DNA from: a virus
Length of the DNA stretch: 64,000 nucleotides
IMG/VR virus record: IMGVR_UViG_3300031669_000021
Location: 1 to 64,000 of that record
Strand: one strand, 5' to 3'
Positions 5,651-58,701 of the stretch are shown here, one piece after another. The notes beneath the pieces were generated by a model that worked only from the letters and a program-made list of their open reading frames with translations, had not been told where the DNA came from and searched no databases. The translations under genes were made by a program, and so were the position numbers. Each line of letters begins with the position of its first letter. Positions within the stretch are counted from its first letter, which is position 1.

Positions 5651-5659
5651 GCGTATAAT
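5631..5659 (+). promoter_or_regulatory. sigma70-type early promoter
   Basis: TTGACA 5631-5636, 17 nt, TATAAT 5654-5659. Confidence 0.55.
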
Positions 5660-6939: not shown

Positions 6940-7661
6940 TCAAAGAATTTAGACCAACTTATCTTTATATCAAACGGCATTCAATTACTGGGCTATTATA
7001 TTTTGGTAAGACTATAAGAAAAAATCCTGAGAGATATTGTGGTTCTGGGAACCATTGGAAGAAACATATAAAGAAACACGGAAAAGAATACGTAGAAACT
7101 CTTTGGTATTGTTTGTTTTATGACAAAGAAGAATGCACAGGATTTGCTCTTGCTTTTTCAGAACAACAAGATATCGTTGAATCAGAATTATGGGCAAATC
7201 AGATAACTGAGAATGGACTTGATGAACGAACAGGAACAAAACACTCATTGAAAAATCGACAACGATTTTCTGAACAGAGATTAGAATACTATAAACACAA
7301 TGATCATCCCAGAGGCATGTTAGATAAACAACATTCTACTAAAACCAAGAAACATTATTCGGAGACACGAAAAGGCTCAAATAATGGAATGTTCAATAAA
7401 AATCATTCCGATGAAACTAAACAACATTGGTCGGAGATTCGAAAAGGCAAAAATTGCGGCGAGAATAATCCAAATTACGGAAATCACGTTTCCGAAGAAC
7501 TAAAGTTAGCATCCTCTGCCAGAAATAAAAATATGGTCTCGGCTTTTGATAAGATCGAAAAGAAAAATGCTCAAATATCAAAAGAAGAATTTGAGGGAAA
7601 TAAGAAAATTAGATATGTCGGTATCGCATCAAAAGAAGCAAAGCAATTAAGAATAACATAA
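6939..7661 (+). CDS. GIY-YIG homing endonuclease (Seg-like) with NUMOD3 repeats; no canonical start codon
   Basis: Frame open from 6927: TYLYIKRHSITGLYYFGKT..R..H..HG..E..N GIY-YIG core, then 4 x HSxETKxxxS NUMOD3-like motifs; no ATG/GTG/TTG before the GIY motif. Confidence 0.6.
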   Translation: MKEFRPTYLYIKRHSITGLLYFGKTIRKNPERYCGSGNHWKKHIKKHGKEYVETLWYCLFYDKEECTGFALAFSEQQDIVESELWANQITENGLDERTGTKHSLKNRQRFSEQRLEYYKHNDHPRGMLDKQHSTKTKKHYSETRKGSNNGMFNKNHSDETKQHWSEIRKGKNCGENNPNYGNHVSEELKLASSARNKNMVSAFDKIEKKNAQISKEEFEGNKKIRYVGIASKEAKQLRIT

Positions 7662-14916: not shown

Positions 14917-15774
14917 ATGTTCTATTACTTATACGAAATAAAAAATAACATAACCGGTAAAATTTATGTAGGTGTTCATAAAACTAATAACATAGATGAT
15001 GGGTATATGGGATCAGGGACAATTATTAACCGAGCTACCAAGAAATACGGCATTGAAAATTTTACAAAAACTATTCTTGAATGGTTTGAGGATTCAACTA
15101 ACATGTATTTAAGAGAAGCAGAAGTAATAAATTCTGAATTCTTATTGCGTAAAGATGTGTATAATATTAAACTTGGCGGAAAAGGTGGATTTGATTATAT
15201 AAACAAAAATAACCTTGGATGGGGAGAGAACAATAAAAGAAGAGTAGAACAAAGCGAAAGAATGGCCTATCGTCATACTTCATCAGAAAATAAAGAAGTA
15301 TGGAATTTGATTAGACAAAAAAGATGGAATAAGCCCGAAGCTAAAGAAAAACACTCTAGGCAAATAAAAGAAAACTGGAAGAACATTGAATGGGCAGCAA
15401 AAGATATAGCAAAAAAGAAAGAAGTAGGTAACAGACCAGAAATTAGAGAGATGCGACGCAAGAACAGTTTAGAAATGTGGCAACGGCCAGAATATCAAAA
15501 AAAGCATAAAGCTGCAATGGCTAAAGTTACTTCTAATCCAACTTGGTTAGAAAATAATCGACAAAACGGAATCAAAAATTGGAAGGATCAGACCAAGCGC
15601 GAAAATATGATGAAAAATAGACCAGCAATGACTGTTGCACAGAGAGAAGAACAGGCAAAAAGAACAACCGAAATTAACAAAAAATCTTGGTCTGATCCTG
15701 CCTCAAGAGAGAAAAGAATAGAAGCAATCCGAGCAGGACAGTTAGCATATTGGGCTAAGAAGAGAAACGGTTAA
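14917..15774 (+). CDS. GIY-YIG homing endonuclease (Seg-like)
   Basis: YYLYEIKNNITGKIYVGVHKT...R..H GIY-YIG core; AT-rich; Lys-rich C-terminus with NUMOD-like repeats; SD AGGAGAG. Confidence 0.7.
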   Translation: MFYYLYEIKNNITGKIYVGVHKTNNIDDGYMGSGTIINRATKKYGIENFTKTILEWFEDSTNMYLREAEVINSEFLLRKDVYNIKLGGKGGFDYINKNNLGWGENNKRRVEQSERMAYRHTSSENKEVWNLIRQKRWNKPEAKEKHSRQIKENWKNIEWAAKDIAKKKEVGNRPEIREMRRKNSLEMWQRPEYQKKHKAAMAKVTSNPTWLENNRQNGIKNWKDQTKRENMMKNRPAMTVAQREEQAKRTTEINKKSWSDPASREKRIEAIRAGQLAYWAKKRNG

Positions 15775-19087: not shown

Positions 19088-19366
19088 ATGGAAAATCACA
19101 AGAGATATTTTATCCACAGGACCAACAGTGATGGTTCTCTTGAATATCGATATCAGACCGGAGAGTGGCGCGATGATTTTAAGGACGCGCAGTTATGGGC
19201 CAGCAAAGAATTTGCAATTAAGAAAGCAAAAGAGTTGAAGAAAAGCGACCTTAACTGGCAGAAAGATTCAGAATTCTGCGGACCATACACTGGGCCTAAA
19301 TTGACCGGCATGTATGTCGGTGAAGTAACAGTAACATATAACGATCAAGATTGGGAAGAAGTATGA
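19088..19366 (+). CDS. hypothetical protein 92 aa
   Basis: track ORF; stop overlaps pnk start. Confidence 0.5.
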   Translation: MENHKRYFIHRTNSDGSLEYRYQTGEWRDDFKDAQLWASKEFAIKKAKELKKSDLNWQKDSEFCGPYTGPKLTGMYVGEVTVTYNDQDWEEV

Positions 19367-20265
19367 ACAAAGCAATAATCACAGTAGGAATTTCAGCATC
19401 AGGCAAGTCAACCTTTGCGGATGAGTGGCTTAACGCAGGGCCTAATCGCGTCCGCATCGAGCGAGATCTTGTGCGTAAGGCACTGGTCGAAGCCGACGGG
19501 AAAGAATGGTCTTGGGACAAATGGAACTGGAAAAGAGAAAGCGAAGTTACTGCCATCATCAATCGCAGAATCGAAGCATGTGCAGGATCACATGACATCA
19601 TCCTGTCAGATACCAATCTGCACACTGGTCGTCGTAATACTCTTGTCAAGTGGCTTGAGTCTCTTGGCTACGAAGTCGAAGTGAAAATGTTTCCCGTATC
19701 AATCGAGGAAGCATGGAAGCGTGATGCAAAACGCGCAAATGGCGTAGGACATTCTGTCATTGCAAAACAATACGAGCAAAATCTCGAAAACAGCACACGA
19801 CGTCGTTATGTAGCTGACCCAAATAAACCAGCCTGCATCTTGGTTGATATCGACGGAACACTTGCTCATATGAACGGTAAGCGCGGTGCATTTGAATGGG
19901 AGAAGGTTGGTCTTGATGTCGTCGACGAGGCAGTTCGAGCTATTGTCAATCGCTTTGCATTCCGTGATGATGGTAGCACAGAAACAGACACCGTAGTTAT
20001 TGCACTCTCTGGGCGTGACGGTATTTGCGAGCCAGAAACACGGCAGTGGTTAAAGGACAACGATGTTGGATTCCACAAACTTTTTATGCGAGCACCAAAC
20101 GATATGCGAAAAGATACAATCGTCAAGGAAGAAATCTTCTGGCGAGATATTGCAGACAACTACAGTGTTCTGTTCGCTATCGACGACCGCCCAAGTGTTG
20201 CAAGAATGTGGCGTGAATTGGGAGTAAAAGTATTTCAAGTTGGCAATCCTCACATTGAATTTTAA
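19363..20265 (+). CDS. pseT: polynucleotide 5'-kinase / 3'-phosphatase (T4 Pnkp)
   Basis: N-terminal P-loop GISASGKST and ISDTNL; C-terminal HAD phosphatase VDIDGTLAHMNGKRG, RKDTIVKEEIFW, AIDDRPSV..MWRELGV; co-linear with T4 PseT. Confidence 0.85.
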   Translation: MNKAIITVGISASGKSTFADEWLNAGPNRVRIERDLVRKALVEADGKEWSWDKWNWKRESEVTAIINRRIEACAGSHDIILSDTNLHTGRRNTLVKWLESLGYEVEVKMFPVSIEEAWKRDAKRANGVGHSVIAKQYEQNLENSTRRRYVADPNKPACILVDIDGTLAHMNGKRGAFEWEKVGLDVVDEAVRAIVNRFAFRDDGSTETDTVVIALSGRDGICEPETRQWLKDNDVGFHKLFMRAPNDMRKDTIVKEEIFWRDIADNYSVLFAIDDRPSVARMWRELGVKVFQVGNPHIEF

Positions 20266-20272
20266 GGATATC

Positions 20273-20728
20273 ATGAGCAAAATAGCAGAAATAAAAACAG
20301 CACAACTGACAGCAAGAAAGGCACGTGATTCGATCACTGCTACATTGCTAACAACTATTATCGGCGAAGCAGAAATGGTCGGCAAGTCCGCCGGTAATCG
20401 CGAATCAACTGACGAAGAAGTTCTGGTCGTGCTGAAAAAGTTCGAGAAGAACATGCTGGAAAATCTACGCATTTACAATGCTCGAAGCATTGAGTATCAC
20501 AATGCAGCAGCGGCAGTCGAAACAGAACTTGAGATTGTCCGCAGGTTCTTGCCAGAGAAATTGACCAACTTGCAGGTCGAGAAAGATATTGGCACAGTTA
20601 TGCAAAAGTTGAATCTGGCCAAAGAACAACAGTCTCTTGGGATTATTGTCAAAGAGCTGAGAGCAAAATATGGCGATCAGTTTGATGGACAGCAAGTCTC
20701 GGGAACGTTTAAGCAAATGTTAGTTTAA
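20273..20728 (+). CDS. YqeY/GatB-C-terminal-domain-like protein
   Basis: Pattern similarity to YqeY (..SDEE..VLKKFEK..LPEKLT..); weak. Confidence 0.4.
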   Translation: MSKIAEIKTAQLTARKARDSITATLLTTIIGEAEMVGKSAGNRESTDEEVLVVLKKFEKNMLENLRIYNARSIEYHNAAAAVETELEIVRRFLPEKLTNLQVEKDIGTVMQKLNLAKEQQSLGIIVKELRAKYGDQFDGQQVSGTFKQMLV

Positions 20729-24888: not shown

Positions 24889-25296
24889 ATGATCGAATAT
24901 GAAGATTTGTCACCTCTTATCCGCGAAAGTCTTGTGCAGTCAAGCGTTCAGCTTATGCGAGATGTCACAGAGGCTTGGGGAAAAGATAAGGGGTTTGAGC
25001 TGTGGGAGAAAATCTCCGAGACACTTGGAGACGGCGTCAAGGGTGATATTTTCTTTGGCATGATTAGCGGGAAACACCTCGAAGTCAGGGTTCGAATCAG
25101 ATCTGCAAGAAATGTTGACAGCCGCGTAAACATGATCAAGGCAGTGAGAACTGCTACGGGAATGGGTCTAAAAGATGCAAAAGATTTTTGTGATGCTGTT
25201 TGGGCCGGAAAACCAGATTCTGTTGTATGCGAAACTTCCGAGGCCGCGAGAACGCTTCTCGCAACGTTGCGAGAACTTGGGTGCGACGCAGTATGA
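24889..25296 (+). CDS. protein with ribosomal L7/L12 C-terminal-domain-like module
   Basis: VNMIKAVRTATGMGLKDAKDFCDAV..SEAARTLLATLRELGCDAV aligns to bL12 CTD [43 protein letters not shown]. Confidence 0.6.
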   Translation: MIEYEDLSPLIRESLVQSSVQLMRDVTEAWGKDKGFELWEKISETLGDGVKGDIFFGMISGKHLEVRVRIRSARNVDSRVNMIKAVRTATGMGLKDAKDFCDAVWAGKPDSVVCETSEAARTLLATLRELGCDAV

Positions 25297-25350: not shown

Positions 25351-26538
25351 ATGTATAATTTTGAAGTACAAAAATTACATGCAGAATGCAATACTCAAGA
25401 GTCGTTTCTTGAAAATCTGAAACTAATTGGCGTAGATGCGCGAGACTATCCAGAACACAAAATGTGGTTGCTGGACTACAACATGATTGAGTGTGAGAAA
25501 AATCATCCAGTCGTGCTTGAGTGTCGTGGTCTGGTAATGGGATATGACGGTTCAATCATCCGTAAGGGCTTCGATCGTTTCTTCAATTTGGGAGAGAACG
25601 GCGTAGATACATTTGACTTCGAGAATTCTGTTGTCTTTGAAAAGGCAGACGGTTCTTTGATGTTTGTTTACTGGTGCCCTCCAACAAATCAGTGGGAAAT
25701 AGGAACTCGCGGAACAGCATTTGCTGAAGGACCAAACGAGTGGCATGGCACATTCCGTGGTTTCATGCTTAAAGCAATGGGACGCACTGAGAAAGAATTT
25801 CAGCTGTCTGCAGGTCGAAATCTGCATAAGGGAACAACATATCTGTTTGAGGCAGTTGGACCTGACAACCGAATTGTCACTGCATATGAAGAGAATCACC
25901 TGGTATTCTTATCCTCGTTCTTTAAGGGAGTCGAGGAAGATGCAGGCGCATTGCGGGTTATGACAGATTTCTTTGTGAATGACAGCGGATGGAACGTTCG
26001 TGAAATTCGCAAGTATTCCTTCAAGACGCAAGAAGATTGCATGATTGCATTGCACGAGCTTACTGGTCTGCAAGAGGGATATGTGGCGTACAATAAGTTG
26101 ACAGGTGATCGAGTAAAAATAAAGTCGCCTGTCTACTTAGCAGCACATCGTCTGCGTGGTAACGGTCTGACATTGAACTCTATTTGTGAACTCGTTGTAA
26201 TGAACGAGGTGGACGAGTATTTGGCTACTTTTCCAGAGGATGCACACAAGTTTGATTCTGCTAAGGAAATGTTGGCAATAATGATACGGGAGTTAATTAC
26301 AAACTATTGCTCACACCAGTTTATGGAAACACAAAAAGAGTTTGCACTTGCGGTGAAGGACTTACCATTGTCGGGAGTTATGTTTCAGGCTCGAAAGAAG
26401 AACACAGATGTCGTGCATGAATTCAATCAGGTTGCAACTAACAAGAAGGCTGATTGGCTGAAAGAACGTTTGCTCCAAACTGATCAGTATCGAGCAGTTT
26501 TGATATCTGAGGGTCGACTCGGAGCTCAGTGTCTTTAA
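25351..26538 (+). CDS. rnlA: RNA ligase 1 (T4 RnlA-like)
   Basis: Motif I FEKADGSLMF (KxDGSL) as in T4 Rnl1; approx 395 aa; tRNA-repair partner of Pnkp. Confidence 0.65.
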   Translation: MYNFEVQKLHAECNTQESFLENLKLIGVDARDYPEHKMWLLDYNMIECEKNHPVVLECRGLVMGYDGSIIRKGFDRFFNLGENGVDTFDFENSVVFEKADGSLMFVYWCPPTNQWEIGTRGTAFAEGPNEWHGTFRGFMLKAMGRTEKEFQLSAGRNLHKGTTYLFEAVGPDNRIVTAYEENHLVFLSSFFKGVEEDAGALRVMTDFFVNDSGWNVREIRKYSFKTQEDCMIALHELTGLQEGYVAYNKLTGDRVKIKSPVYLAAHRLRGNGLTLNSICELVVMNEVDEYLATFPEDAHKFDSAKEMLAIMIRELITNYCSHQFMETQKEFALAVKDLPLSGVMFQARKKNTDVVHEFNQVATNKKADWLKERLLQTDQYRAVLISEGRLGAQCL

Positions 26539-27053: not shown

Positions 27054-27082
27054 TTGACATTAACCGAACAGTGTGTTATATT
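27054..27082 (+). promoter_or_regulatory. sigma70-type early promoter
   Basis: CCCTTGACA 27054-27059, 17 nt, TATATT 27077-27082 with TGTG upstream. Confidence 0.5.
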
Positions 27083-30091: not shown

Positions 30092-30120
30092 CTTGACATT
30101 TCGGTAAAGGTGTGTTATAA
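30092..30120 (+). promoter_or_regulatory. sigma70-type early promoter, cassette copy
   Basis: CCCTTGACATTTCGG, 17 nt, TATAAT 30115-30120. Confidence 0.6.
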
Positions 30121-30153
30121 TAGGTTGTCTAAAATTAAATAAAGGTGGATTAA

Positions 30154-31708: not shown

Positions 31709-31979
31709 ACGATTTTGTCCTCAAAACTTCTTGGTCGATAGACCAGTTGGGAATTCTTTATACGGACAGAAGCCATGCAGTTTAACTCTACGCGGCAATG
31801 GATATAACTGGCAAACCAGAACAAACAACAATTATGATTGCGTGACGCGCATACACGGCGAGATTCATTATCTGACGGAACATGCTCCGGCAAAAGTTCA
31901 ACGTCGATGGAAACAGGCTGAGGTTCGTTGGAAAAAACGCATGGCGTGGTGGCGCGGAGGAATCAATGAGCGACTATAG
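31698..31979 (+). CDS. hypothetical basic protein approx 93 aa
   Basis: ATG 31698 overlapping previous 3' end; track ORF 31683-31979. Confidence 0.35.
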   Translation: MSSKRFCPQNFLVDRPVGNSLYGQKPCSLTLRGNGYNWQTRTNNNYDCVTRIHGEIHYLTEHAPAKVQRRWKQAEVRWKKRMAWWRGGINERL

Positions 31980-32439
31980 TCACCCAAAAATACAGCCTTC
32001 CTCAATGACAATAAAAGAATTGGCACATTGGGGAGAGGATCACCCAGACCCATGGGTAAAAGCAATGGCCATATTGATTGGCGATGTTCATGCCTTACAA
32101 CCATTGGATGGATTTAGCGCAGAAGAGTTTCAGAACTGGGAAGACAGAGTAAGAGACGCAGAACGAGAAGCAGAGTGGGCAGAAGAAGAGGCATCGATTG
32201 CTCGAGCAAACCAAGCCCGCGCAGAAGTAGATCGCGATGCAGCAAAATACGATCTATTAAAAACTGAACAAGACTATCAGATTAAATCTCTTAAAGAGAG
32301 GCTGCTTTATAAAGAAAGTGTAATAAATTCTCTATCATCTGAATTAACAGTGACTCGCAGCAACTTCAATGAACTACAGAAGAGTCACAAAGAACTGCAA
32401 GAGAGATATAATACTTTCAGGATACTTGCGACACCATAA
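31966..32439 (+). CDS. coiled-coil protein approx 158 aa
   Basis: ATG 31966 after SD GGAGGA; track ORF started at TTG 31882. Confidence 0.45.
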
Positions 32440-32471
32440 ATAACAATACACATACGGAGAACAACACCACC

Positions 32472-32690
32472 TTGGCAAAAGAAGAAGTTTTAGAGTTTAC
32501 AGGCACAGTAATAGAATTACTGCCATCAGCAACATTTCGCATTGAACTTGATACAAACAAGCATATTATATTAGCATATTTGGGCGGCAGATTGCGTAAG
32601 AATACAATCAATATCCTACTCGGCGATAAAGTAAAGGTTGAGATGTCGCCATACGATCTGAATAGAGGTCGAGTCGTTTATAGGAACTAA
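32472..32690 (+). CDS. infA: translation initiation factor IF-1 homologue
   Basis: [71 protein letters not shown] aligns along full length with bacterial IF1. Confidence 0.8.
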
Positions 32691-32705: not shown

Positions 32706-32735
32706 AAAAACCAGTCTTCGGACTGGTTTTTCTTT
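32706..32735 (+). terminator. rho-independent terminator
   Basis: AAAAACCAGTC-TTCG-GACTGGTTTTT hairpin plus CTTTATC. Confidence 0.65.
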
Positions 32736-32779: not shown

Positions 32780-33016
32780 ATGACGCAACAAGTTATTAAC
32801 ATTGGCACACAGCCAGGTGATGGTTCAGGTGATCCACTCAGAGTATCATTCAATAAGATAAATCAGAACTTTGCTGAAATATATGCAACTCTTGGAACAT
32901 TTTTGGTTGATGTAAGTAGCGGCAACGATTATGGTTCAATAGTAGGAATTTATGGCGTAGACTACGGGTTTATTACTGACCTAGCAACAATATTTTTAGA
33001 TTATGGGAGCATTTAA
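32780..33016 (+). CDS. virion/tail-fibre associated protein 78 aa
   Basis: GDGSGDPLRVSFNKINQNF motif repeated at N-terminus of 33995 gene. Confidence 0.5.
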   Translation: MTQQVINIGTQPGDGSGDPLRVSFNKINQNFAEIYATLGTFLVDVSSGNDYGSIVGIYGVDYGFITDLATIFLDYGSI

Positions 33017-33018
33017 TT

Positions 33019-33993
33019 ATGTCTGAACAAGTACAGTTGAGAAGAGGCACTGCGGCACAAACCGCAACATTTACCGGAGCTCAAGGTGAAGTTACGGTTA
33101 TTACGGACAATTATACTCTCACCGTCCATGATGGAATAACTGCCGGCGGTCACGAGGTTGCTTCAAAAGCTTACGTTGATAGCGTAAGCATTGCTGATTT
33201 AACATCAGCAAACGTAACAACTGCTCTTGGATATACACCCCTCAATTCTGCAACCTTCACTGGCGCAAATGTTGTTGTTCAGTTAGGTTACACACCATAT
33301 GATGCTACCATTAATGCCAATGCATTTACTACGCTTTCGGCAGTAGCCAATGTTGGTTATCTAACCGCAATTACCTCAGGAAACATAACAACTGCACTGG
33401 GATATACTCCATATGATGCAAATGTAAATGCGAATGCTTATACAACATTGTCAGCAGTTTCTAGCGTTGGTTATCTAACCGCAATTACCTCAGGAAACGT
33501 AACAACTGCGCTGGGATATACTCCGCTAGATGCAGCTTCATTCACTGGAGCTAATATTGTTTCTAACATTGGTGCAACTCAGGTTCAATCAGCAAATAGC
33601 GCAGCCTACTTGGGCGGACTAATCGCAACAGATTATACTCTGAAGACAGACGTTATTGCAGAAGCAAATAACTCGGCTTACTTAGGTGGGATTCCTGCTG
33701 CTAGTTATGCTACAACAGCAAGTCAGGTTACTGTTTACAATGCAGGCGCAGATCAGATAATTTACACTGGTAATGTTCAATTAAATGGGACTACTCCTGT
33801 AATAGTATCTTTGCCGGCACCATATTCTAATGCTTATTATAGAGTTCAGGTTACACATAACGGACCATTCATCTCTACTCCAGGTCTTATTGCAGCAAAC
33901 GTAATTTCTTCATCGCAGTTTACGGTTGAGTCCGTGGCAGTGTCGGATACAAATTATGTTTTCTGGACAACTTTTGGAAGCGTAACAGCATAA
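33019..33993 (+). CDS. tail-fibre-like structural protein with TALGYTP repeats
   Basis: Ser/Thr/Asn/Ala-rich; 3-4 repeats of NxTTALGYTP(Y/L)DA..A..T. Confidence 0.6.
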   Translation: MSEQVQLRRGTAAQTATFTGAQGEVTVITDNYTLTVHDGITAGGHEVASKAYVDSVSIADLTSANVTTALGYTPLNSATFTGANVVVQLGYTPYDATINANAFTTLSAVANVGYLTAITSGNITTALGYTPYDANVNANAYTTLSAVSSVGYLTAITSGNVTTALGYTPLDAASFTGANIVSNIGATQVQSANSAAYLGGLIATDYTLKTDVIAEANNSAYLGGIPAASYATTASQVTVYNAGADQIIYTGNVQLNGTTPVIVSLPAPYSNAYYRVQVTHNGPFISTPGLIAANVISSSQFTVESVAVSDTNYVFWTTFGSVTA

Positions 33994-33994: not shown

Positions 33995-35197
33995 ATGAAT
34001 TCAACATCCTTATCATCTGAACTATTCGTTCACTATGGCGCGGTACCAAATGACGGTACCGGCGATCCATTGCGTGATGCATTTATTAAGACTCAGACCA
34101 ATATTAATTATTTGTTTAATTTCTTAAATAATAATCCGTATTTCCCTAACGCAACAATCGGAAACGCATTTATAACTGCGGCAAACATTAGCACGTTAAC
34201 CACTAATACTTCTACAATTACTAATCTAGTAGTAGGAAGCGAAATAGTAGGGAACCTAACAGCAAGCAATCTGACAGGTACGTCTATATACGGCACAATA
34301 ATGACGCCGTCACAACCAAATATTACCACACTTAATGATATCTTTATTACTGGTAATTTAAGTGTGGGCGGTAACACAACGACATTAAATGCAAGTGAAA
34401 TAGTTGGTAACCTGACAGCAAGCAATCTGACAGGTACGTCTATATACGGCACAATAATGACGCCCTCACAACCAAATATTACCACACTTAATAATATCTT
34501 TATTACTGGTAATTTAAGTGTGGTCGGGAACACAACGACGTTAAATGCAAGCAATTTAGTTATTTCTGACAGCATAATTTACTTGGCAGATAGTAACCCA
34601 TCTGATTTATTAACCATTGGTATGGTGGCTGATTATAACACCAATGGCATTGGTGGTAACGTCCACACAGGTCTAGTCAGAAGCAGTGTTACTAAAGAGT
34701 GGTACTTATTTGACAATTACGGACCAAATGATCCTCAGTCACTTGTCAATTTTGACCTAATATCGTCAAATATTAATTTATCAACACTAAATGCAAACAC
34801 AGTGACACAGGCTCCAAACGATAATTCTAATAAATTAGCGTCAACTGCTTATGTTGACAAGCTATCATACTATGATATTGCTGGTGGTTCTACTGGTTCG
34901 CCAACTGCAAGTGCAAAGTTACTAACGTTTGTCGCAGTTAGGAATATGTCTCTTCCTACAAACCTGACAGGTAGTTACTGTGTTGCTGGTACTGCTGCAA
35001 CAGCGACCACAACAATCACTCTAAACAAAAACGGTTCTTCCTTTGGGAATATATCTTTTGCTGCCGCTGCTACTATCGCTACATTCACTGTGGCGGCAAC
35101 GTCGTTTATCGCAGGTGATATCATCACCGTAGTTGCATCTGCCACTCCTGATACAACGTTGGCAGATATTGGGTTTACATTAACAGGAACCTTGTAA
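33995..35197 (+). CDS. tail-fibre-like structural protein with 52-aa tandem duplication
   Basis: GTGDPLRDAFIKTQTNINYLF N-terminus; perfect 156-nt tandem repeat 34241-34552; Thr/Asn-rich. Confidence 0.6.
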   Translation: MNSTSLSSELFVHYGAVPNDGTGDPLRDAFIKTQTNINYLFNFLNNNPYFPNATIGNAFITAANISTLTTNTSTITNLVVGSEIVGNLTASNLTGTSIYGTIMTPSQPNITTLNDIFITGNLSVGGNTTTLNASEIVGNLTASNLTGTSIYGTIMTPSQPNITTLNNIFITGNLSVVGNTTTLNASNLVISDSIIYLADSNPSDLLTIGMVADYNTNGIGGNVHTGLVRSSVTKEWYLFDNYGPNDPQSLVNFDLISSNINLSTLNANTVTQAPNDNSNKLASTAYVDKLSYYDIAGGSTGSPTASAKLLTFVAVRNMSLPTNLTGSYCVAGTAATATTTITLNKNGSSFGNISFAAAATIATFTVAATSFIAGDIITVVASATPDTTLADIGFTLTGTL

Positions 35198-40399: not shown

Positions 40400-40544
40400 A
40401 GAACCAGAATTCTGGACAATACTAAAGACTCCACTAAAGACTCAGAAAGAGCTAGATTATGAGTTTTGGGTAAAGATTCTTGCTGATTGCGAAGATGTTC
40501 ATCGGGGACACGTATTTCAGGATTATTTAACAATATGCAAGTAG
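40386..40544 (+). CDS. small protein, paralog 3 (KEPEFWTILKTPL)
   Basis: ATG 40386 to TAG 40542-40544. Confidence 0.4.
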   Translation: MKNNKEPEFWTILKTPLKTQKELDYEFWVKILADCEDVHRGHVFQDYLTICK

Positions 40545-41047
40545 ACAAATTCGGCATTGCACATAGAACTACAGATGAGATATGCGATCTATTATACATT
40601 GATCCTGCATTAGATCTGAATCAGGTTCAAGTTGACGACCCAGAGATATTTAATAAAAGCATTAAGGATCTTTATTCCGATTTAATTCCTTTGCAGAAAT
40701 ACACATTATCTGACGAAGATGTTTCGGCTTTCGACGAACGTAACCAGAACAATTGGTATATGCCACAAAAATATAAAGAATTCGATATTGCAAAGTGGCT
40801 ACTAGAGCAATGCCGAACAGAAGAAGAAGTGCAGCGCGTCGGCACAGAACTATTGATGTTCAATGAGCGTAATCTATTAGATCTTCTTAGATATATGAGA
40901 TATTTTGTTGAGACGCTTAGAGAGAACAATGTGGTTTGGGGAGTAGGTAGGGGTAGTTCTGTTGCTTCTTTTTGTTTATTCCTTATCGGAGTACATAGGA
41001 TCAATTCTATTTATTATGATCTTTCGATAGAGGAATTTCTAAAGTGA
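40535..41047 (+). CDS. hypothetical protein approx 170 aa
   Basis: ATG 40535; C-terminal WGVGRGSSVASFCLFLIGV..IEEFLK resembles a short DnaE segment. Confidence 0.45.
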   Translation: MQVDKFGIAHRTTDEICDLLYIDPALDLNQVQVDDPEIFNKSIKDLYSDLIPLQKYTLSDEDVSAFDERNQNNWYMPQKYKEFDIAKWLLEQCRTEEEVQRVGTELLMFNERNLLDLLRYMRYFVETLRENNVVWGVGRGSSVASFCLFLIGVHRINSIYYDLSIEEFLK

Positions 41048-41056
41048 CCAAAACGC

Positions 41057-41069
41057 TGATAAATACTTA
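41057..41069 (+). promoter_or_regulatory. T4-type late promoter box
   Basis: TGATAAATACTTA vs TATAAATACTATT; 29 nt before ATG 41095. Confidence 0.4.
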
Positions 41070-41094
41070 TACACGCATATAAGGAAATAACAAT

Positions 41095-41322
41095 ATGGCA
41101 AAAGTAATCAGAACAGCAATGGGAAATAAAATAGACGTAGAGAACTTAATGGCTAAGAATGATAGAGTTATTGCCGTCGGAAACCGTAAGGTGAATGCAA
41201 GAGGTGACCTATTAGGTCCAGGTGGTCAAATTATTAAGACACGTGATCAGATAATGAAAGAATATTACGCTGTAAATACACCGGTTGCAGCAGAACCAAA
41301 GTCAGACGACAAACCAAAATAA
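41095..41322 (+). CDS. hypothetical protein 75 aa
   Basis: track ORF; stop lies inside a decamer tandem repeat. Confidence 0.45.
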   Translation: MAKVIRTAMGNKIDVENLMAKNDRVIAVGNRKVNARGDLLGPGGQIIKTRDQIMKEYYAVNTPVAAEPKSDDKPK

Positions 41323-41344
41323 ACCAAAATAAACCAAAATAAAA
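41311..41344 (+). repeat. 3 x AAACCAAAAT tandem decamer spanning a stop codon
   Basis: 41311-41340 plus AAAA; TAA 41320-41322 sits in repeat unit 1. Confidence 0.7.
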
Positions 41345-41353
41345 GGAATCAAA

Positions 41354-41644
41354 TTGAATTATAAACCACTACAGAACAGAGTTATTATTAAGCGTCTCGT
41401 CGAGAAAAATACCACAGACGGTGGAATTTATATTCCTGGCACAGTATTAGAAAAGCCTGATTCAGGAACAGTTATGGCAGTTGGACCAGGCAAGCGCACC
41501 GATAAAGGTGTATTAATTCCAATGGAAGTAGAAGTATTTAATATCGTGTTATTCGCAAAAGGAGCCGGGTCAGAAGTTAAACTCGACGGAGAAGATTATC
41601 TTGTTATGCGCGAAGACGACATTATAGGAATAGTTGAACTATGA
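41354..41644 (+). CDS. GroES/Cpn10-like co-chaperonin (TTG start)
   Basis: MNYKPLQNRVIIKR..GGIYIPG..AVGPG..DYLVMREDDIIGIV aligns with GroES along full length; SD AAGGAA 5 nt before TTG. Confidence 0.7.
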   Translation: MNYKPLQNRVIIKRLVEKNTTDGGIYIPGTVLEKPDSGTVMAVGPGKRTDKGVLIPMEVEVFNIVLFAKGAGSEVKLDGEDYLVMREDDIIGIVEL

Positions 41645-41886
41645 TTACCATATACAGTAAAGAACATTGTCCGTTTTGTGTTAAGGCTAAGACCTTACTT
41701 GACATTAAGGGAATCGCTTACACTGAAGTTAGGGTTGATCAGCTTGAAGAAGCAAAACAATTCCTGATGACAGAGGGGCATCGCACAGTGCCGCAGATAT
41801 ACAAAGACGGCAAACTATTAGTAGAAGGCGGCTATACAGGATTAGCCAAACAGTCAGAAGAATTCTTCAATAACTTAAAGGCATAA
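41641..41886 (+). CDS. glutaredoxin (NrdH/Grx-like)
   Basis: YSKEHCPFCVKAK CPxC active site, ..TVPQIY..GG; 81 aa. Confidence 0.75.
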   Translation: MITIYSKEHCPFCVKAKTLLDIKGIAYTEVRVDQLEEAKQFLMTEGHRTVPQIYKDGKLLVEGGYTGLAKQSEEFFNNLKA

Positions 41887-41890
41887 TAAT

Positions 41891-42280
41891 ATGGATAGCG
41901 CATTAAAATCAGTAGAAATAAAAGAATTAAAACCAATCCGTGATCGCGTTATCGTAACAGAGATGAAGTTCACCGACAGATTCACCAAGGGCGGAATTTA
42001 TATCCCAAGCGACGACAAACAAATACACGGTGTTCGTCCACGTTGGGGCAAAGTCTTTGCTGTTGGTCCAGAACAGAAGGATATTCGTGTAGGCCAGTGG
42101 ATTTTAGTGGCTCACGGGCGTTGGACACGCGGAGTGAAAATTGAGGACGAAACGGGCACTCATACTCTCCGAATGGTCGATAATAACGACATTTTGTTGT
42201 CATCTGAGACAGAAGTTGTAGACGAAGTCCTTGGTGTGCCATTAACACAAGCTCAGATGAATGGCGCTCCTCGATACTAA
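41891..42280 (+). CDS. second GroES/gp31-like co-chaperonin, divergent
   Basis: ELKPIRDRVIV..GGIYIP..GKVFAVGP..GQWILV; 129 aa like T4 gp31 extended GroES. Confidence 0.55.
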   Translation: MDSALKSVEIKELKPIRDRVIVTEMKFTDRFTKGGIYIPSDDKQIHGVRPRWGKVFAVGPEQKDIRVGQWILVAHGRWTRGVKIEDETGTHTLRMVDNNDILLSSETEVVDEVLGVPLTQAQMNGAPRY

Positions 42281-42615
42281 TGTGGAAATCAATGACAAAG
42301 TTACTGAATAAAGTTTGGTGGGAATCAGACAACGAAAAAGAAAAGAAGGAATTGTTCGAACGCCTTCAAGTAGAAGACACGCCCGAAGAGAAGGCGGAAA
42401 AGGATAAGATACGTGCGCAAATTGAATTCGAAATGGCAAATCCTGCACCGCTTGTCCCTCCCACCGAAGAAGAGATAGCCGCCGACAAAGCAATGGTTGA
42501 AAAAATCTGGGAAGAATTCAATGAAGCAACCGAAAAGTTATCTGTCCTTCTATCCGAATTTAACGCTGAATTCCCTGAGCATCAGATGCATATTGACGAT
42601 TACCGAAAACATTGA
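42280..42615 (+). CDS. hypothetical acidic protein 111 aa
   Basis: track ORF. Confidence 0.45.
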   Translation: MWKSMTKLLNKVWWESDNEKEKKELFERLQVEDTPEEKAEKDKIRAQIEFEMANPAPLVPPTEEEIAADKAMVEKIWEEFNEATEKLSVLLSEFNAEFPEHQMHIDDYRKH

Positions 42616-42705
42616 CTTATCTAGCCGACTCCTGTATTATAAGTTATCATTCAAAAAGGACAGGAATAATGTCTCCGTGCATGAATACCTAATAGGAGAA
42701 ACATT

Positions 42706-43558
42706 ATGTGGCCAAATACACCATGGAATAAGGGGAAAAAATTAGAAGGCGAAAAATATAAAGGTGGTAGGAAGAACAAAGGGAAGAAAAGATCAGCCCA
42801 GTTTAAGGAAAACGCTAAAAATATATCTTCACTAAGAAAGCACACAGAGGCCGAGAAACAAAAACTTAGAGACAGACCTAAAGAAATATATAAGAAACCC
42901 AAGGCTACTCCCATCGCAACAACTGAACTATGTCAGTATAATTGTGGCCAGATAGCAAAATATTCATTTGCTAATGGCAAATTGTGCTGCTCAACGAGTC
43001 ATAACTCTTGTCCCGGTAAGAAAAAACAGTTTTCAGATATGGATCACACTGAGAGAACCGCAAAATCATTGGCGACCCGTCTTGAAAAGGGAATTACTAA
43101 AAGTTGTCAGATAAAAGGCGCAGCGACTAGAAAAGCAGCTGGGTTTTACGAAAAACACGCCGATATTATGAGGCAACATTGGATAGATCATCCTTGGGAC
43201 AATAATACACAATGTCCTATATTACCGTATAAAAATATAGATCTCGTGTATCAAGGAACATATGAATTCGAATTCTTAGAAGGATTAGAAGAAAAGCACG
43301 GAATCGAGTGGATTAAACAAAATGTTCTCCGCGGCCCGTCGGTTTGGTATTTTGATTCAGAAGATAATACCAAAAGACTTTACATCAGTGACTTTATAAT
43401 ATACAATACTATATGAAATAAAATCTGGCTGGACGTGGAATAGACACGGCAAAGACCTAAAATTGGAAGCCAAGAATAAAGCAAAATTAAATCAATGCAT
43501 ATCTGAAGGATATAAAGTAATGTTGGTATTAGATAAGAAAGAAATAACATATGAGTAA
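42706..43558 (+). pseudogene. Vsr/DUF559-like PD-(D/E)xK homing-endonuclease-like gene interrupted by a +1 frameshift at 43411-43416
   Basis: Frame 1 ends ..RLYISDFIIYNTI-TGA; frame +1 continues YEIKSGWTWNRHGKDLKLEAKNKAKLNQCISEGYKVMLV, completing PDF-x-IEIKG-x-WH...D..K...L...G..V; N-terminal Cys cluster and PWNKGKK motifs match HNH gene 44516. Confidence 0.5.
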
Positions 43559-44480
43559 TATTAAGACTCTTTGGGTGGAAAAGTATAGACCAAATACATT
43601 AGATGGTTACGTTTTCAAAGACGTGTCACAAAAGCAGCAAATAGAATCCTGGATTAAAGACAAATCAATTCCTCACTTACTGTTCAGTGGTGCAGCAGGC
43701 ATTGGTAAAACTACACTTGCAAAGATATTAATTAATTCTCTTGACGTTGACGAGTATGATGTCAAGGAGATTAACGCGTCGCGCGAAAATAGCGTAGATC
43801 ACATGCGTGACGTTATTATCGGCTTTGTAAGCACAATGCCGTTCGGCAGCTTTAAAATTGTATTACTCGACGAAGCTGATTATCTATCTCCAAACGCGCA
43901 GGCTATCTTGCGTGGTGTTATGGAAACGTATGCAGAAACGGCTCGATTTATTCTAACGTGCAACTATCCAAACAAGATTATTCCAGCATTGCACAGTAGA
44001 TGTCAGGGATTCCACTTCGAAAAGATTGATCACACTGAATTTACTGCCCGAGCAGCGACTGTATTGCTAACAGAGAACATAGAGTTTGATATGGATGTAT
44101 TGGATGACTTTGTTCGTGTCACCTATCCAGACTTGCGTAAATGCCTTAATACATTGCAAATGCACAGCACAACAGGTAAATTAATTGCATCTGCAGCCAA
44201 TAGTTCTACATCTGATTACAAGTTAGAAATGGTTGATCTCTTTAAGAAGGGTAAGATACGCGAGGGTAGACAATTAGTTTGTGCTCAGGCTCGACCGGAA
44301 GAGATGGAAGACTTATTCAGGTTCTGTTACGATAACTTGGACTTATGGAGCAAGGACGTAGAGGGACAAGATCAGGCAATTATTATCATTCGCCAGGGGT
44401 TAGTTAATCATTCTTTATGCGCTGACAGTGAGGTGAATCTGAGTGCAACTCTATGTGAGTTGGCAATGATCGGCAAATAG
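43551..44480 (+). CDS. 44: clamp-loader ATPase subunit (T4 gp44 / RFC small-subunit-like)
   Basis: WVEKYRP RFC box, Walker A SGAAGIGKTT, Walker B LLDEAD, SRC motif. Confidence 0.85.
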   Translation: MSNIKTLWVEKYRPNTLDGYVFKDVSQKQQIESWIKDKSIPHLLFSGAAGIGKTTLAKILINSLDVDEYDVKEINASRENSVDHMRDVIIGFVSTMPFGSFKIVLLDEADYLSPNAQAILRGVMETYAETARFILTCNYPNKIIPALHSRCQGFHFEKIDHTEFTARAATVLLTENIEFDMDVLDDFVRVTYPDLRKCLNTLQMHSTTGKLIASAANSSTSDYKLEMVDLFKKGKIREGRQLVCAQARPEEMEDLFRFCYDNLDLWSKDVEGQDQAIIIIRQGLVNHSLCADSEVNLSATLCELAMIGK

Positions 44481-44515: not shown

Positions 44516-45304
44516 ATGTTATGTAGATATGGATGTGGAAAAGAAGGAATTAGACAATTTAAAGATAAAACCTGGTGTTGCTCTCAAAATATAGGTCAAT
44601 GTTCTGAGATTGCACGACGAAGAGTTGCAACAAGAAAAGCAAAAGATGAACCTTGGCATTCTAAGAAAACCTGCGATAAAATAGGGAACGCAACGCGTGG
44701 TCGTGAATTATCTGAGGAATGGTGTCAAAATATTAGTAAAGCAACTAAAGGAAAAAGTAAAGGGCCGCAATCAGAAGAACACCGTCAAAATCTTGCTGCG
44801 GTAAGAAAAGGGAAAACCCCGTGGAATAAAGGATTGACTGTAGAAGATCCAAGAGTTGCATCTTATGTAGATAAGCAAACTGGACAGATACGGCAAGGAA
44901 ATTATATGTCGCCGACAAAATGGCAAGGTTCAGGAAATCCGTGGTATGGTAAAAACAGAAGTAAAGATAATAGTCCAAGATATAATGGAGAGCAGTATAA
45001 TAGAGAATTATCAGACTATCGACACAGGGTCATTTGGTTGTCAGAAATAACATATGAAAAATATAAAAATCAAATCAACCCAATGAATTATCCAAGAACA
45101 CTTGCTGGAGTTGATGGTGGGTTTCACTTAGATCATATCTATCCGATAGCAGAGGGATTTGATAACAATATACCACCCGAAATGTTGGCAGAATTAGAAA
45201 ATTTAAGATTGTTACCTTGGAGAGAGAATGTCGCTAAAAGTAAAAATCTGCTTGAAGAAATAATATCAGAATCAATTAAAACTTATTTAAAGGAAAATAA
45301 ATGA
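44516..45304 (+). CDS. HNH homing endonuclease with NUMOD3 motifs
   Basis: N-terminal CRYGCGKEG..CCSQNIGQC zinc cluster, PWNKG / HSEEHRQNL NUMOD3 motifs, C-terminal HLDHIYPIA..N HNH core. Confidence 0.65.
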   Translation: MLCRYGCGKEGIRQFKDKTWCCSQNIGQCSEIARRRVATRKAKDEPWHSKKTCDKIGNATRGRELSEEWCQNISKATKGKSKGPQSEEHRQNLAAVRKGKTPWNKGLTVEDPRVASYVDKQTGQIRQGNYMSPTKWQGSGNPWYGKNRSKDNSPRYNGEQYNRELSDYRHRVIWLSEITYEKYKNQINPMNYPRTLAGVDGGFHLDHIYPIAEGFDNNIPPEMLAELENLRLLPWRENVAKSKNLLEEIISESIKTYLKENK

Positions 45305-45853: not shown

Positions 45854-46447
45854 TTAAGAAAGAGCAGGTAGTCTTTTGAGATGCTTGGAGTAATTAGCAG
45901 GATCGTAGGACTTTTGACAATGTAAGCAAGATATTTTGCCTGGTATTACGCCAGCACGATTCTTGCTTATTTTTTGACGACTTTCATCCGAGTGTGTTCT
46001 TAGTGCGCTCTTAGCGCCAATTTTGATTTTTGTTTCTTCTGATATTACAATGATCTGTTTTGCTCGCTTTTCTCGGATAATTTGCTTTGTTTCTTCCGTA
46101 TGAGAATGTCTTTTTCCCTTCATTGAAGCTGATCGCTTTGCATTTGATTCAGCTGATTGTGTTGCGCCAGACTGCCCGTCTCCGCCGTCTGTTTTATTTC
46201 GAAGTATTCCTGTGCCTACATCAATTCTACCATACCAACGGATCATTCTACGCTCTAATGCTAATGCACCGAGATTAGTCAGGCGTAATTCCAGGAATAC
46301 AATACCTGACTTATCCTTAGGCACAGGAACAGAGTGAACGTTGTATGCACGATTTCCCTTTCCTTTGCCGATATAATACGGTGTTCCTGCTTTTGCTGTT
46401 GCTGAGTCTTTACTTCTTAGATATGCATAGACGTAATAAATATTCAT
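45854..46447 (-). CDS. GIY-YIG homing endonuclease (minus strand) with NUMOD3 repeats
   Basis: [33 protein letters not shown] core; [38 protein letters not shown]3; SD GGAG. Confidence 0.7.
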
Positions 46448-46965: not shown

Positions 46966-47628
46966 GTGACACAAGATATGATAAAAATACCAGCCCCTGA
47001 TAACGTCAGCAATGAAGAATTAATTGAGGTACTAAAGACCATCTGTATCAGTAAGGCAGATGGCAACAAGAGTTGGTATCTAAATGATCAACGACACAGA
47101 GTTGATGGACCAGCAATTGAATATGCAGATGGCGCAAAGCATTGGTATCTAAATAATCAATTACACAGAATTGATGGACCAGCAATTGAATATGCAGATG
47201 GCACAAAGAGTTGGTATCTAAATAATCAACGACACAGAGTTGATGGACCAGCAATTGAAGATGCAGATGGCGCAAAGCATTGGTATCTAAATAATCAATT
47301 ACACAGAATTGATGGACCAGCAATTGAAGATGCAGATGGCAGCAAACATTGGTTTCTAAATGATCAACGACACAGAGTTGATGGGCCAGCAATTGAATAT
47401 TCAAATGGCACAAAGAGTTGGTATCTAAATGGTCAACGACACAGAGTTGATGGACCAGCAATTGAATATGCAGATGGCAGCAAATGTTGGTATCTAAATA
47501 ATCAATTACACAGAGTTGATGGACCAGCAATTGAATATGCAGATGGCAGCAAATGTTGGTATCTAAATGGTCATGAGATCACCGAAGAAGAATTCAATAG
47601 AAGAACAAAACCATATTCGCGACGATGA
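46966..47628 (+). CDS. MORN-like repeat protein, second paralog (approx 8 repeats)
   Basis: Same DGPAIEYADGxKxWYLNxQxHRV 23-aa repeats as 171-782; shared N-terminus PDNVSNEELIEVLKTIC. Confidence 0.6.
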   Translation: MTQDMIKIPAPDNVSNEELIEVLKTICISKADGNKSWYLNDQRHRVDGPAIEYADGAKHWYLNNQLHRIDGPAIEYADGTKSWYLNNQRHRVDGPAIEDADGAKHWYLNNQLHRIDGPAIEDADGSKHWFLNDQRHRVDGPAIEYSNGTKSWYLNGQRHRVDGPAIEYADGSKCWYLNNQLHRVDGPAIEYADGSKCWYLNGHEITEEEFNRRTKPYSRR

Positions 47629-53155: not shown

Positions 53156-54013
53156 ATGAACTATTATGAACTCCTTGGTGTTACAAAAGACACCCCACAA
53201 GACGAAATTAAAAAGAAATATCGAGCCCTTGCGTCAAAACATCATCCTGACAAAGAAGGCGGCAATACTCAAAAGTTTCAGGAAATTCAGATAGCATATG
53301 ATACCCTAAGCGATGCACAGAAAAGACATCAGTATGATATGGAATTAGCTGGTGGCGGTAGACAGCAGTTTAGCTTTAATAGCAGTCATGCTAATGACAT
53401 GCATGAAGATATGCTTGATCTTCTTCGCAGGCAGTTTGGATTCAATGTAGGCGGCTTTCAATCACATTTCCAGCAATCTCATCGACCAGCAAGAAATCAA
53501 GATGTGAGAATTGCAGTTCAATTAGACTTATATGATACATTAGCGGAGCAAGATAAGACGTTAAATCTTAAGATTCCGGGTGCAGAAAGTAATGCAATTA
53601 GTATAAAAATTCCGCGAGGAGTACAGCACGGAACAATGATTCGTTATCCTGGATTAGGAAGTCACGAAATAACAACAGCGCCAAGAAGTGACTTATATGT
53701 CCAATTCCATATTAAACCACATCCGGTTTTTGAACAAGACGGAATTGATTTAACAATGCCCTTGACTATTAATTGCTTTGATGCTATACTGGGATGTGAG
53801 AAATCAATTACTGGTCTTGATGGGAGAATATTCAGGCTCAACATTCCGCCAGGCTCACAACATGGTAAGAAGTTAGGTATTCCTGATGCTGGTTTATACA
53901 CAACCGAGCATAACAATCGAGGAAAATTAATCATTGATCTTAATATCGTAATACCAGAAACTTTAACAGAATCACAAAAAGAAACAATCCGTTCTATTCG
54001 AGCGGCACTGTAA
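53156..54013 (+). CDS. DnaJ-family co-chaperone (J domain plus DnaJ C-terminal domains, no Zn finger; CbpA-like)
   Basis: YYELLGV..KKKYRALASKHHPDK J domain with HPD; C-terminal ..DLYV..H..F.R.G.DL beta-sandwich repeats. Confidence 0.75.
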   Translation: MNYYELLGVTKDTPQDEIKKKYRALASKHHPDKEGGNTQKFQEIQIAYDTLSDAQKRHQYDMELAGGGRQQFSFNSSHANDMHEDMLDLLRRQFGFNVGGFQSHFQQSHRPARNQDVRIAVQLDLYDTLAEQDKTLNLKIPGAESNAISIKIPRGVQHGTMIRYPGLGSHEITTAPRSDLYVQFHIKPHPVFEQDGIDLTMPLTINCFDAILGCEKSITGLDGRIFRLNIPPGSQHGKKLGIPDAGLYTTEHNNRGKLIIDLNIVIPETLTESQKETIRSIRAAL

Positions 54014-54047
54014 GCCGAAACAATAAATATTTTATATAGGGAACAAC

Positions 54048-58583: not shown

Positions 58584-58612
58584 TTGACAAGAGGGTCATT
58601 TGAGTGTATAGT
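58584..58612 (+). promoter_or_regulatory. sigma70 promoter driving the tRNA
   Basis: CCCTTGACA 58584-58589, 17 nt, TG-TATAGT 58605-58612; tRNA 5' end 12 nt downstream. Confidence 0.6.
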
Positions 58613-58623: not shown

Positions 58624-58701
58624 GCGATTGTAGCTTAGTTTGGCCAAAAGCAGCGGCTTCTAACCCCGTGATCGTCGGTTCGAATCCGACCAAGCGCACC
58701 A
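58624..58701 (+). tRNA. tRNA, anticodon loop TTCTAAC giving anticodon CUA (amber-suppressor type); amino-acid identity undetermined
   Basis: Acceptor GCGATTG/CAAGCGC (one A-G mismatch), D-arm GCTT..AAGC, T-arm GTCGG-TTCGAAT-CCGAC, 4-nt variable loop, discriminator A, encoded CCA; U33 and A37 flank CTA; anticodon stem has one C-C mismatch. Confidence 0.55.

Follow-up and report, generated by a model that had tools for sequence, protein, structure and literature searches.

Through sequence analysis of a 64,000-nucleotide stretch of viral DNA (IMG/VR record IMGVR_UViG_3300031669_000021, positions 1 to 64,000; hereafter the window), a gene of 72 codons at positions 32472-32690 has been identified as coding for IF-1, a factor of translation initiation. 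The gene is probably a functional initiation factor owned by the phage. Its product is a full-length bacterial-type IF-1 with the expected fold, it has been retained under purifying selection in a lineage of jumbo phages, and it is framed by a late-type promoter motif and an intrinsic terminator. Phage-encoded IF-1 is already known from huge phages, the Lak phages, the protein family PHROG 30201 and the annotation of phage Phosso, and the gene of the window is a further member of this class. The fixed position before the tail-fibre genes, the late-type motif of its own and a clade-wide replacement of arginine by asparagine at a ribosome contact appear to be undescribed in the searchable literature.

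Phage initiation factors are among the clearest signs that huge phages partly control host translation, and to our knowledge none has been characterised biochemically. The locus is a well-defined case, in which a long-kept IF-1, a late-type motif, a terminator and a clade-wide substitution at the contact with nucleotide A1493 come together. The genes for IF1, IF3, S1, S21 and L7/L12 have been reported in huge phages, and a role in redirecting host translation has been proposed (Al-Shayeb 2020, PMC7162821).

Identity and fold of the encoded protein

The gene and its ribosome-binding signal are as follows.

32472 to 32690, plus strand: infA-like gene for a 72-residue IF-1 (TIGR00008, PF01176, PDB match, AlphaFold2 model with Foldseek, dN/dS)
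32456 to 32459, plus strand: Shine-Dalgarno-like element (GGAG), 12 nt upstream of the IF-1 start codon TTG (direct reading of the sequence)

The open reading frame (ORF) consists of 72 codons followed by TAA and starts with TTG; its translation is identical to that in the first-pass annotation, which had described it as a phage-encoded IF-1 collinear with the bacterial factor over its full length. Profile, structure and model searches all bear this description out. The infA equivalog TIGR00008 (NCBIfam) matches with 97.2 bits at a cut-off of 61.15, over profile positions 1-68 of 69, Pfam family PF01176 with 74.4 bits (cut-off 30.2, E 5.6e-21) and PHROG 30201 with E 2.1e-24. A search of the PDB returned 12 distinct IF-1 sequences, among them Escherichia coli IF1 (9fco_I; E 2.2e-22, residues 1-71), relative to which the window protein carries a single one-residue insertion. 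The alignment to infA products, on whose significance the annotation had staked the assignment, is thus highly significant.

The TTG start is secure because the N-terminus, (M)AKEE, is the canonical N-terminus of IF-1. The GGAG element is likewise found upstream of IF-1 in five related loci (L205, L042, L207, L211 and L213), and TTG or GTG opens eight of the nine IF-1 genes of this lineage (loci: the window, L205, L042, L206, L207, L209, L211 and L001); in L207 the ATG that was called lies five codons downstream of the true start, a TTG. The same start codons occur in at least 10 IMG/VR loci with IF-1 (L003, L004, L007, L021-L023, L030-L033), unlike the alphaproteobacterial infA loci used as a cellular control set, where ATG is the usual start.

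An AlphaFold2 model, calculated from an alignment of 13 clade sequences, has a mean predicted local distance difference test (pLDDT) score of 83.6 and shows strands beta1-3, a short helix and strands beta4-5 (E-E-E-H-E-E). This is the architecture of a single-domain protein of about 70 residues with an S1-like, five-stranded oligonucleotide/oligosaccharide-binding (OB) fold and a helix between beta3 and beta4. In a Foldseek search with the model, ranks 1-14 are all IF-1 structures, and the superposition on 30S-bound E. coli IF1 (9fco_I) gives a template modelling (TM) score of 0.94 and a root-mean-square deviation of 0.7 Å. The eukaryotic and archaeal factors eIF1A and aIF1A come after these; they share the OB core (Foldseek E 1e-5 to 1e-3, TM about 0.8) but possess extra helical domains and tails and are only 17-27% identical, the window protein being clearly of the bacterial type.

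Compared to the bacterial factors (E. coli, 9fco chain I and 1AH9; Thermus thermophilus, 1HR0), the window IF-1 has the same length, single OB fold and MAKEE start, with an identity of 54% to the E. coli protein and up to about 70% to alphaproteobacterial ones. The residues facing helix 44 of the 16S rRNA (h44), the 530 loop and protein uS12 are alike with one exception. The differences relate to (i) its location in a phage genome; (ii) the TTG start; (iii) the T4-late-type motif upstream; (iv) the one-residue insertion, which lies in the beta2-beta3 loop; (v) an asparagine in place of the A1493-contacting arginine, with a threonine two positions before it; and (vi) the C-terminus, which ends in ...VYRN without the basic extension of many cellular IF-1s.

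Phage lineage, genomic position and expression signals

In a search of 5.8 billion proteins the window IF-1 was met by an identical sequence, then by relatives of 93% and 81% identity and a series at 71-76%, all of them on metagenomic contigs. Among named cellular proteins the best matches are IF-1s of alphaproteobacteria, at 68-70%, and no cellular homologue was found above about 70%. Ten related contigs with IF-1s of about 62-93% identity were inspected (L042, L205, L206, L207/L208, L209, L210, L211, L212 and L213), and all are phage-like. Nine of the ten share one arrangement, namely a run of small genes, then IF-1, then a fibre-like protein or a protein of 900-1200 residues. Where the contigs are long enough, there follow downstream MazG/HIT, a fragment of DnaE, Cpn10, an AAA clamp-loader protein, an opposite-strand PhoH, DnaJ and ClpA/B. 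The exception is L210, whose IF-1 is situated between PhoH and DnaJ, without a fibre gene after it. L206 also shares the genes upstream in the window for a HAD_PNKP-domain protein, an L12-like protein and an Rnl1-type ligase.

The gene shows the marks of long maintenance by selection within a phage lineage, in its substitution pattern (dN/dS, the ratio of nonsynonymous to synonymous substitution rates, of 0.04-0.13), its composition, its position and its upstream motif. Between the window and its 93% relative in L205, dS is 1.07 and dN 0.04, giving a dN/dS of 0.04; the other estimable pairs give 0.08-0.13, and in the remaining ones the synonymous sites are saturated while the protein is kept. 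The GC content of the gene is 0.374 (0.342 at third codon positions) against 0.40 for the window, whereas alphaproteobacterial infA loci mostly lie at 0.5-0.73.

These data bear directly on the explanation that the gene is a passenger, either a recent copy or fragment of a host infA without a role for the phage or part of a cellular or chimeric contig. IF-1 is universal in bacteria, and some "phage" records with IF-1 matches (Listeria, Staphylococcus) are small, unannotated and could be contamination. However, the gene is full length, and its phage-like GC content and strong purifying selection (dN/dS 0.04) exclude a recent host-derived fragment, a candidate that was considered and rejected on these grounds. 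The searches returned no cellular homologue closer than the level given above, the INILL type defined below is missing from the best 80 GTDB loci, the position is shared by nine of ten related phage loci (L210 excepted), and no cellular housekeeping genes flank the gene. Hallmark phage genes throughout the 64 kb, the PHROG 30201 match and the synteny place IF-1 inside a bona fide phage genome, and the passenger explanation is accordingly very improbable. The first-pass annotation had named a host fragment devoid of the conserved 30S contacts as the outcome that would undo its proposal; the gene proved to be full length with its contacts kept, save one, the A1493 arginine, which is replaced.

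Megablast of positions 30-36 kb against 50,697 phage records gave no match, and relatives were found at the protein level only. The closest isolated-phage relative, both for IF-1 (62% identity) and for the ClpA/B-like ATPase (44%), is the 469-kb Sinorhizobium phage Phosso; for the ATPase, Agrobacterium phage Atu_ph07 (490 kb) is among the isolated phages that come next. On the strength of these protein relatives and of the matching gene set in Phosso, the window is regarded as part of a jumbo phage of the Phosso/Atu_ph07 group, which is related to the Rak2-like phages. The Phosso protein (PV764938, XYS97333.1), annotated as "translation initiation factor IF-1", likewise has a TTG start, an xINILLGD motif with asparagine at the same position and an upstream ATAAATA, and IF-1 there too has a fragment of DnaE, GroES, an AAA clamp-loader protein, PhoH, DnaJ and a ClpA/B-like gene in its vicinity. 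Phosso differs in having a Clp-family ATPase and MutT directly upstream of IF-1 and reverse-strand genes downstream; it keeps the cellular-type G-H-I-S-G-K-M, where the clade of the window has A-Y-L-G-G-R-L, and the two genomes show no nucleotide similarity by megablast. In Atu_ph07, a related phage, no IF-1 was detected. As a cultivable relative, Phosso offers a test system.

IF-1 is encoded in 36 phage records and 40 IMG/VR contigs, many of the latter 250-550 kb long. The huge-phage genes (Lak, MK250015-29; IMG/VR contigs of 250-550 kb) resemble that of the window in being accompanied by further translation genes, among them L7/L12, tRNAs and chaperones, but belong to other lineages and hosts, whereas the clade of the window has its own signature and syntenic position. 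The Lak phage IF-1 is 55% identical to the window protein, reads KLI at the motif and retains the basic residue.

In a neighbour-joining tree the window IF-1 groups with 13 other representatives of the type A-Y-x-G-G...I-N-I-L-L, and the grouping persists when the motif columns are removed. This 14-member asparagine clade is nested in a group of 42 that also holds the Phosso type and an arginine-retaining type, A-T-x-G-G...N-I-R-I-L-L...V-Y-R-N-K. Arginine is kept by 16 of the 42, and every member whose context was checked is phage-borne; the x-I-N-I-L-L proteins so checked (P0024, P0068, P0088 and Phosso) all lie in the same kind of jumbo phage. The xINILL sequences are not strictly monophyletic in the tree, and arginine-retaining proteins interleave with them, including two whose context was checked and is that of a phage. 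Judging from these sequences, the asparagine was probably derived within phages.

Scans of metagenomes and GTDB with the clade alignment were swamped by alphaproteobacterial IF-1, the pattern V-x-E-x-LP-[SN]-ATF being common to both. The loci gained in this way served as the cellular control set, and the scans yielded a single new clade locus, L045. The INILL type is not among the best 80 loci from 185,579 GTDB species genomes, a result that follows from ranking and is not exhaustive.

The signals recognised around the gene, together with similar ones elsewhere in the window, are listed below.

32435 to 32442, plus strand: CATAAATA, T4-late-type promoter-like motif 29 nt before the TTG of IF-1, overlapping the stop codon of the ORF at 31882-32439
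32706 to 32731, plus strand: intrinsic terminator (11-bp stem, UUCG loop, T-rich tail) right after the IF-1 stop codon
32751 to 32757, plus strand: ATAAATA late-type motif of the tail-fibre block, within GCATAAATAC, 22 nt upstream of the fibre-like gene at 32780
11967, 14895, 32436, 32751, 38982, 41059, 52742, 54023, 57071 and 60180, plus strand: ATAAATA sites near gene starts
30093 to 30121, plus strand: sigma-70 promoter of perfect consensus (TTGACA-17-TATAAT, with TG), at the head of the row of small genes of which IF-1 is the last
5631-5659, 6803-6831, 27054-27082, 30093-30121, 58584-58612 and 60280-60308, all plus strand: six sigma-70 consensus sites with at most one mismatch, two of them perfect

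The consensus of T4 late promoters is TATAAATA. Within at most 60 nt upstream of IF-1, ATAAATA is present in six of 11 independent related loci, Phosso included, and TAAATA in eight of 11; the maximum in 2000 random draws from these loci was three. In L205, L042, L206, L209, L211, L212 and L213, a motif of the ATAAATA/TAAATA type also recurs in the interval that separates IF-1 from the fibre gene. Together with the site 22 nt before the fibre gene in the window, this recurrence supports the earlier proposal of a late promoter before the structural block. Inside the window the distance from ATAAATA to the start codon downstream is 15-22 nt for the genes starting at 11995, 14917, 32780, 39011, 52769, 54048, 57096 and 60207; for IF-1 (32472) and the gene at 41095 it is 29 nt. 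The motif as such is not enriched (22 sites against 21 expected), so that only its placement and conservation are informative. Among the genes preceded by it are those for the fibre protein, a holin-like protein, the ClpA/B-like ATPase and the NMNAT-like protein. A gp55-like late sigma factor is encoded by Atu_ph07 and the Rak2-like phages (PMC6102473).

The terminator hairpin has a folding energy of -14.4 kcal/mol (z -5.5), a stability that none of 200 shuffled sequences reaches, and ranks first among the terminator-like sites of the 26-36 kb region, in line with the strong terminator that the first-pass annotation had placed after IF-1. Hairpins of unrelated sequence, read by eye, stand at the same place in L205, L209, L211 and L213. 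IF-1 thus seems to possess a phage-type promoter and a terminator of its own, from which a transcript of about 290 nt would be expected, if the motif acts as a promoter. The six sigma-70 sites compare with 0.96 expected, and none of 100 shuffles reaches six, which suggests that much of the region is readable by unmodified host RNA polymerase.

Ribosome contacts and the predicted role

The codon at the exceptional contact is located as follows.

32610 to 32612, plus strand: AAT, codon of Asn47, at the site of the arginine that contacts A1493 (Arg46 in Thermus, Arg45 of the mature protein in E. coli), by alignment to E. coli IF1

The conserved 30S contacts of IF-1 have been listed in Thermus numbering, with Arg46 as the contact to A1493 (bioRxiv 10.1101/2023.10.27.564398, citing Carter 2001). 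The C-terminal arginine of E. coli IF1 is essential for the interaction with 30S (PMC4611024). The flipped-out state of A1492/A1493 is also stabilised by IF1, and the decoding centre becomes free once the factor is released (PMC13345285). Retained in the window protein are Pro18, Ala20, Arg23, Tyr35, Gly38, Lys39 (as Arg), Arg41, Tyr60, Asp61, Arg64, Arg66 and Arg70, so that, Arg46 apart, all tested residues contacting h44, the 530 loop and uS12 are present, including the equivalent of E. coli Arg69. At the position of Thermus Arg46, where a basic residue is near-invariant without defining the family by itself, it has Asn47. The aligned E. coli segment is RKNYIRILTGD; the lost arginine stands five residues after Arg41 in the motif I-R-I/V-L, and a threonine replaces Tyr/Arg two residues before Asn47. 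We take Asn47 to correspond to Thermus Arg46 from the conserved G-K-M-R...I-R spacing and the 1HR0 sequence.

Asparagine is invariant at this position in 13 aligned TINILL sequences and in 14 of 14 representatives of the AY-GG...INILL clade, and is also present in the Phosso-like, P0088 and P0103 types. The 40 IMG/VR viral loci have 14 Arg, 16 Lys, 5 Gln, 3 Thr and 2 Asn. The glutamine and threonine belong to a separate viral group (L003, L004, L007, L021, L030-L033) with GTG starts and the motif ...G-H-I-S-G-K-M-R-Q/K-N-R-I-Q/T-I-L..., which means that the basic residue has been lost in more than one group of phage IF-1s.

Several points weigh against a functional, phage-owned IF-1 as the explanation of the locus. 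Arginine occupies the Arg46 position in all 159 alphaproteobacterial control loci (80 of 80 from GTDB and 79 of 79 from JGI metagenomes), and among 150 diverse IF-1 representatives, taken as 50%-identity clusters from 15 billion proteins, there are 143 Arg, 6 Lys and a single Asn, itself of the INILL type; the loss of the basic residue that contacts A1493 may therefore have weakened or changed the canonical function. The tree is poorly resolved, with a neighbour-joining bootstrap of 18% (9/50) for the 14-member clade and 8% (4/50) for the group of 42. Such values are as expected with 72 columns, and a single capture of the gene consequently rests mainly on synteny and the shared signatures. 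Finally, signals of both the sigma-70 and the late type lie upstream of IF-1, which makes the time of its expression ambiguous.

The substitution lends itself to a second explanation, that of a neofunctionalised IF-1, which would still dock in the 30S A site but act as a modifier rather than a substitute owing to the Asn and Thr changes. By altering the conformation of h44 and the decoding centre or its own off-rate, such a protein would tilt the choice of start sites or mRNAs, or the rate at which subunits join, in favour of phage messages, and it would be in competition with host IF-1. The invariance of the asparagine in the 13 TINILL and 14 clade sequences and its presence in the Phosso-like, P0088 and P0103 types speak for selection rather than drift. 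Gln or Thr occurs in eight of the 40 IMG/VR loci and Asn in two, set against Arg/Lys in the cellular samples, and as 16 of the 42 representatives of the broader group keep Arg, the Asn is probably derived within phages. The known role of IF1 in holding A1492/A1493 flipped out and in freeing the decoding centre on release (PMC13345285) fits this explanation as well. However, one substitution among about a dozen contacts may be near-neutral for binding, the net charge, counted from the sequences, is unchanged relative to E. coli IF1, and the direction of any effect is purely conjectural. A neofunctionalised factor is considered unlikely, although it is the chief rival of the preferred reading.

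More doubtful still is a broader proposal, by which the INILL proteins form a phage-specific functional variant, the arginine having been lost by selection for a change in the duration or conformation of the hold on the decoding centre, the protein being made late from a gp55-type promoter of its own, during bulk production of structural proteins, and the Gln/Thr of the other group reflecting a convergent viral strategy. If it were true, initiation on host ribosomes would be biased towards phage mRNAs, or the phage factor would be insensitive to an agent that targets host IF-1. More generally, a functional substitution would show a virus retuning a universal translation factor, and a non-functional one would leave the locus a routine example of a reported gene class.

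IF-1 and the S1/CspA proteins share the OB fold type, and E. coli IF1 has a reported RNA-chaperone activity. The protein might act independently of the ribosome, its fold being used like that of a cold-shock protein for melting structure in phage mRNA or for antitermination, and the loss of a ribosome-contacting arginine would be compatible with relaxed ribosome binding. Nevertheless, the residues facing uS12 and the 530 loop (Tyr60, Asp61, Gly38, Lys/Arg39, Arg66 and Arg70) vary little or not at all within the phage clade, which is not expected of a generic chaperone, and the Pfam search of the IF-1 ORF gave no match to the CSD family. This explanation is considered improbable.

For the preferred reading, a functional phage-owned IF-1, the following course of events may be envisaged. 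The gene would have been captured by an ancestor of a broad jumbo-phage lineage, of which Phosso is an isolated IF-1-carrying member, and inherited vertically since then at a fixed place directly in front of the tail-fibre module. It would form a short transcription unit by itself, reaching from the ATAAATA late-type motif to the intrinsic terminator, and be translated from TTG; read-through from the upstream sigma-70-type promoter is also possible. The OB-domain protein would most likely bind the A site of the host 30S subunit between h44, the 530 loop and uS12, and supply or supplement IF-1 activity during bulk synthesis of phage proteins. The asparagine in place of the A1493-contacting arginine, with the neighbouring threonine, would probably alter the affinity for h44 or the dwell time on it, and not abolish binding. 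Identity, fold, conservation, selection and the sequence signals are read from the data themselves; from them we infer the 30S binding, the timing of expression and the benefit to the phage. The role so outlined would agree with the one proposed for the translation genes of huge phages (PMC7162821), and also with the known stabilisation of flipped-out A1492/A1493 by IF1 until it is released (PMC13345285). The "deliberate rewiring of host translation" suggested in the first-pass annotation would be an interpretation of the same kind, which others had put forward earlier for huge phages (PMC7162821).

Other translation genes and the surrounding phage genome

Two further elements related to translation are present in the window.

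24889 to 25296: L12-like gene of 135 residues, with a Ribosomal_L12 C-terminal domain at residues 77-132 (35 bits, cut-off 25.9)
58624 to 58698: tRNA with anticodon CUA and an encoded CCA end (ARAGORN label "Pyl"; Rfam tRNA, 53 bits)

Both had been listed beforehand, as an L12 mimic and a suppressor-type tRNA, and are confirmed by these matches; the Pth-like gene listed beside them was not recovered, none being present among the 89 ORFs scanned with Pfam (E up to 0.01; Pth1, Pth2 and RF-1-domain families). For the L12-like protein no match was reported to the N-terminal dimerisation and L10-binding domain of L7/L12; a counterpart is found at the same place in L206. A near-consensus sigma-70 promoter (TTGACA-17-TATAGT, 58584-58612) ends 12 nt before the CUA tRNA. 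TAG is a rare stop codon, used by five of the 89 ORFs, and in each case a TAA or TGA comes 0-4 codons later. A recoding of TAG tied to the suppressor tRNA was considered and rejected for the window, where no ORF needs TAG read-through; the tandem stops look like tolerance of suppression rather than recoding.

The window has a GC content of 0.40, and nearly all of its genes lie on the plus strand. They include a T4-type ATP-dependent DNA ligase, a dCMP deaminase, PNKP, a YqeY-domain protein, an Rnl1-type RNA ligase, PhoH, a GH19 endolysin, holin-like proteins and an NMN-adenylyltransferase-like protein. The remaining features are listed below.

32780 to 33016: T4_gp9_10_N fibre-like gene, with a score just under the Pfam cut-off
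33019 to 33993: Mtd_N gene (Pfam)
33995 to 35197: tail-fibre gene (PHROG match)
19351 to 20728 and 25351 to 26538: T4-like set for repair of tRNA and RNA, consisting of PNKP (HAD_PNKP and P-loop kinase domain), an adjoining YqeY-domain protein and an Rnl1-type RNA ligase
40487 to 44480 and 53156 to 56348: chaperone and replication cluster (DnaE fragment, Cpn10/GroES, clamp-loader AAA+, DnaJ, ClpA/B-like)
7113 to 7661, 14917 to 15774, 44516 to 45304 and 45854 to 46447 (minus strand): four putative homing endonucleases (NUMOD3 or GIY-YIG), the last being the one on the minus strand

In L206 the counterparts of the repair set are a HAD_PNKP-domain protein and two RNA ligases, one of them of the Rnl1 type. 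The chaperone and replication cluster is common, at least in part, to the related contigs that reach far enough. In the window its DnaE (Pol III alpha) fragment is isolated and 186 residues long, two Cpn10/GroES genes (41354-41644, strong; 41891-42280, weak) flank a glutaredoxin-like ORF, and the ClpA/B-like protein is a double-AAA ATPase. DUF6745 gave whole-sequence Pfam matches for the ORFs at 87-782 (E 1.8e-9) and 46966-47628 (E 4e-11) with no single stretch above threshold, a pattern that suggests short repeated motifs and not a true domain. The homing endonuclease genes break a gene order that is otherwise conserved.

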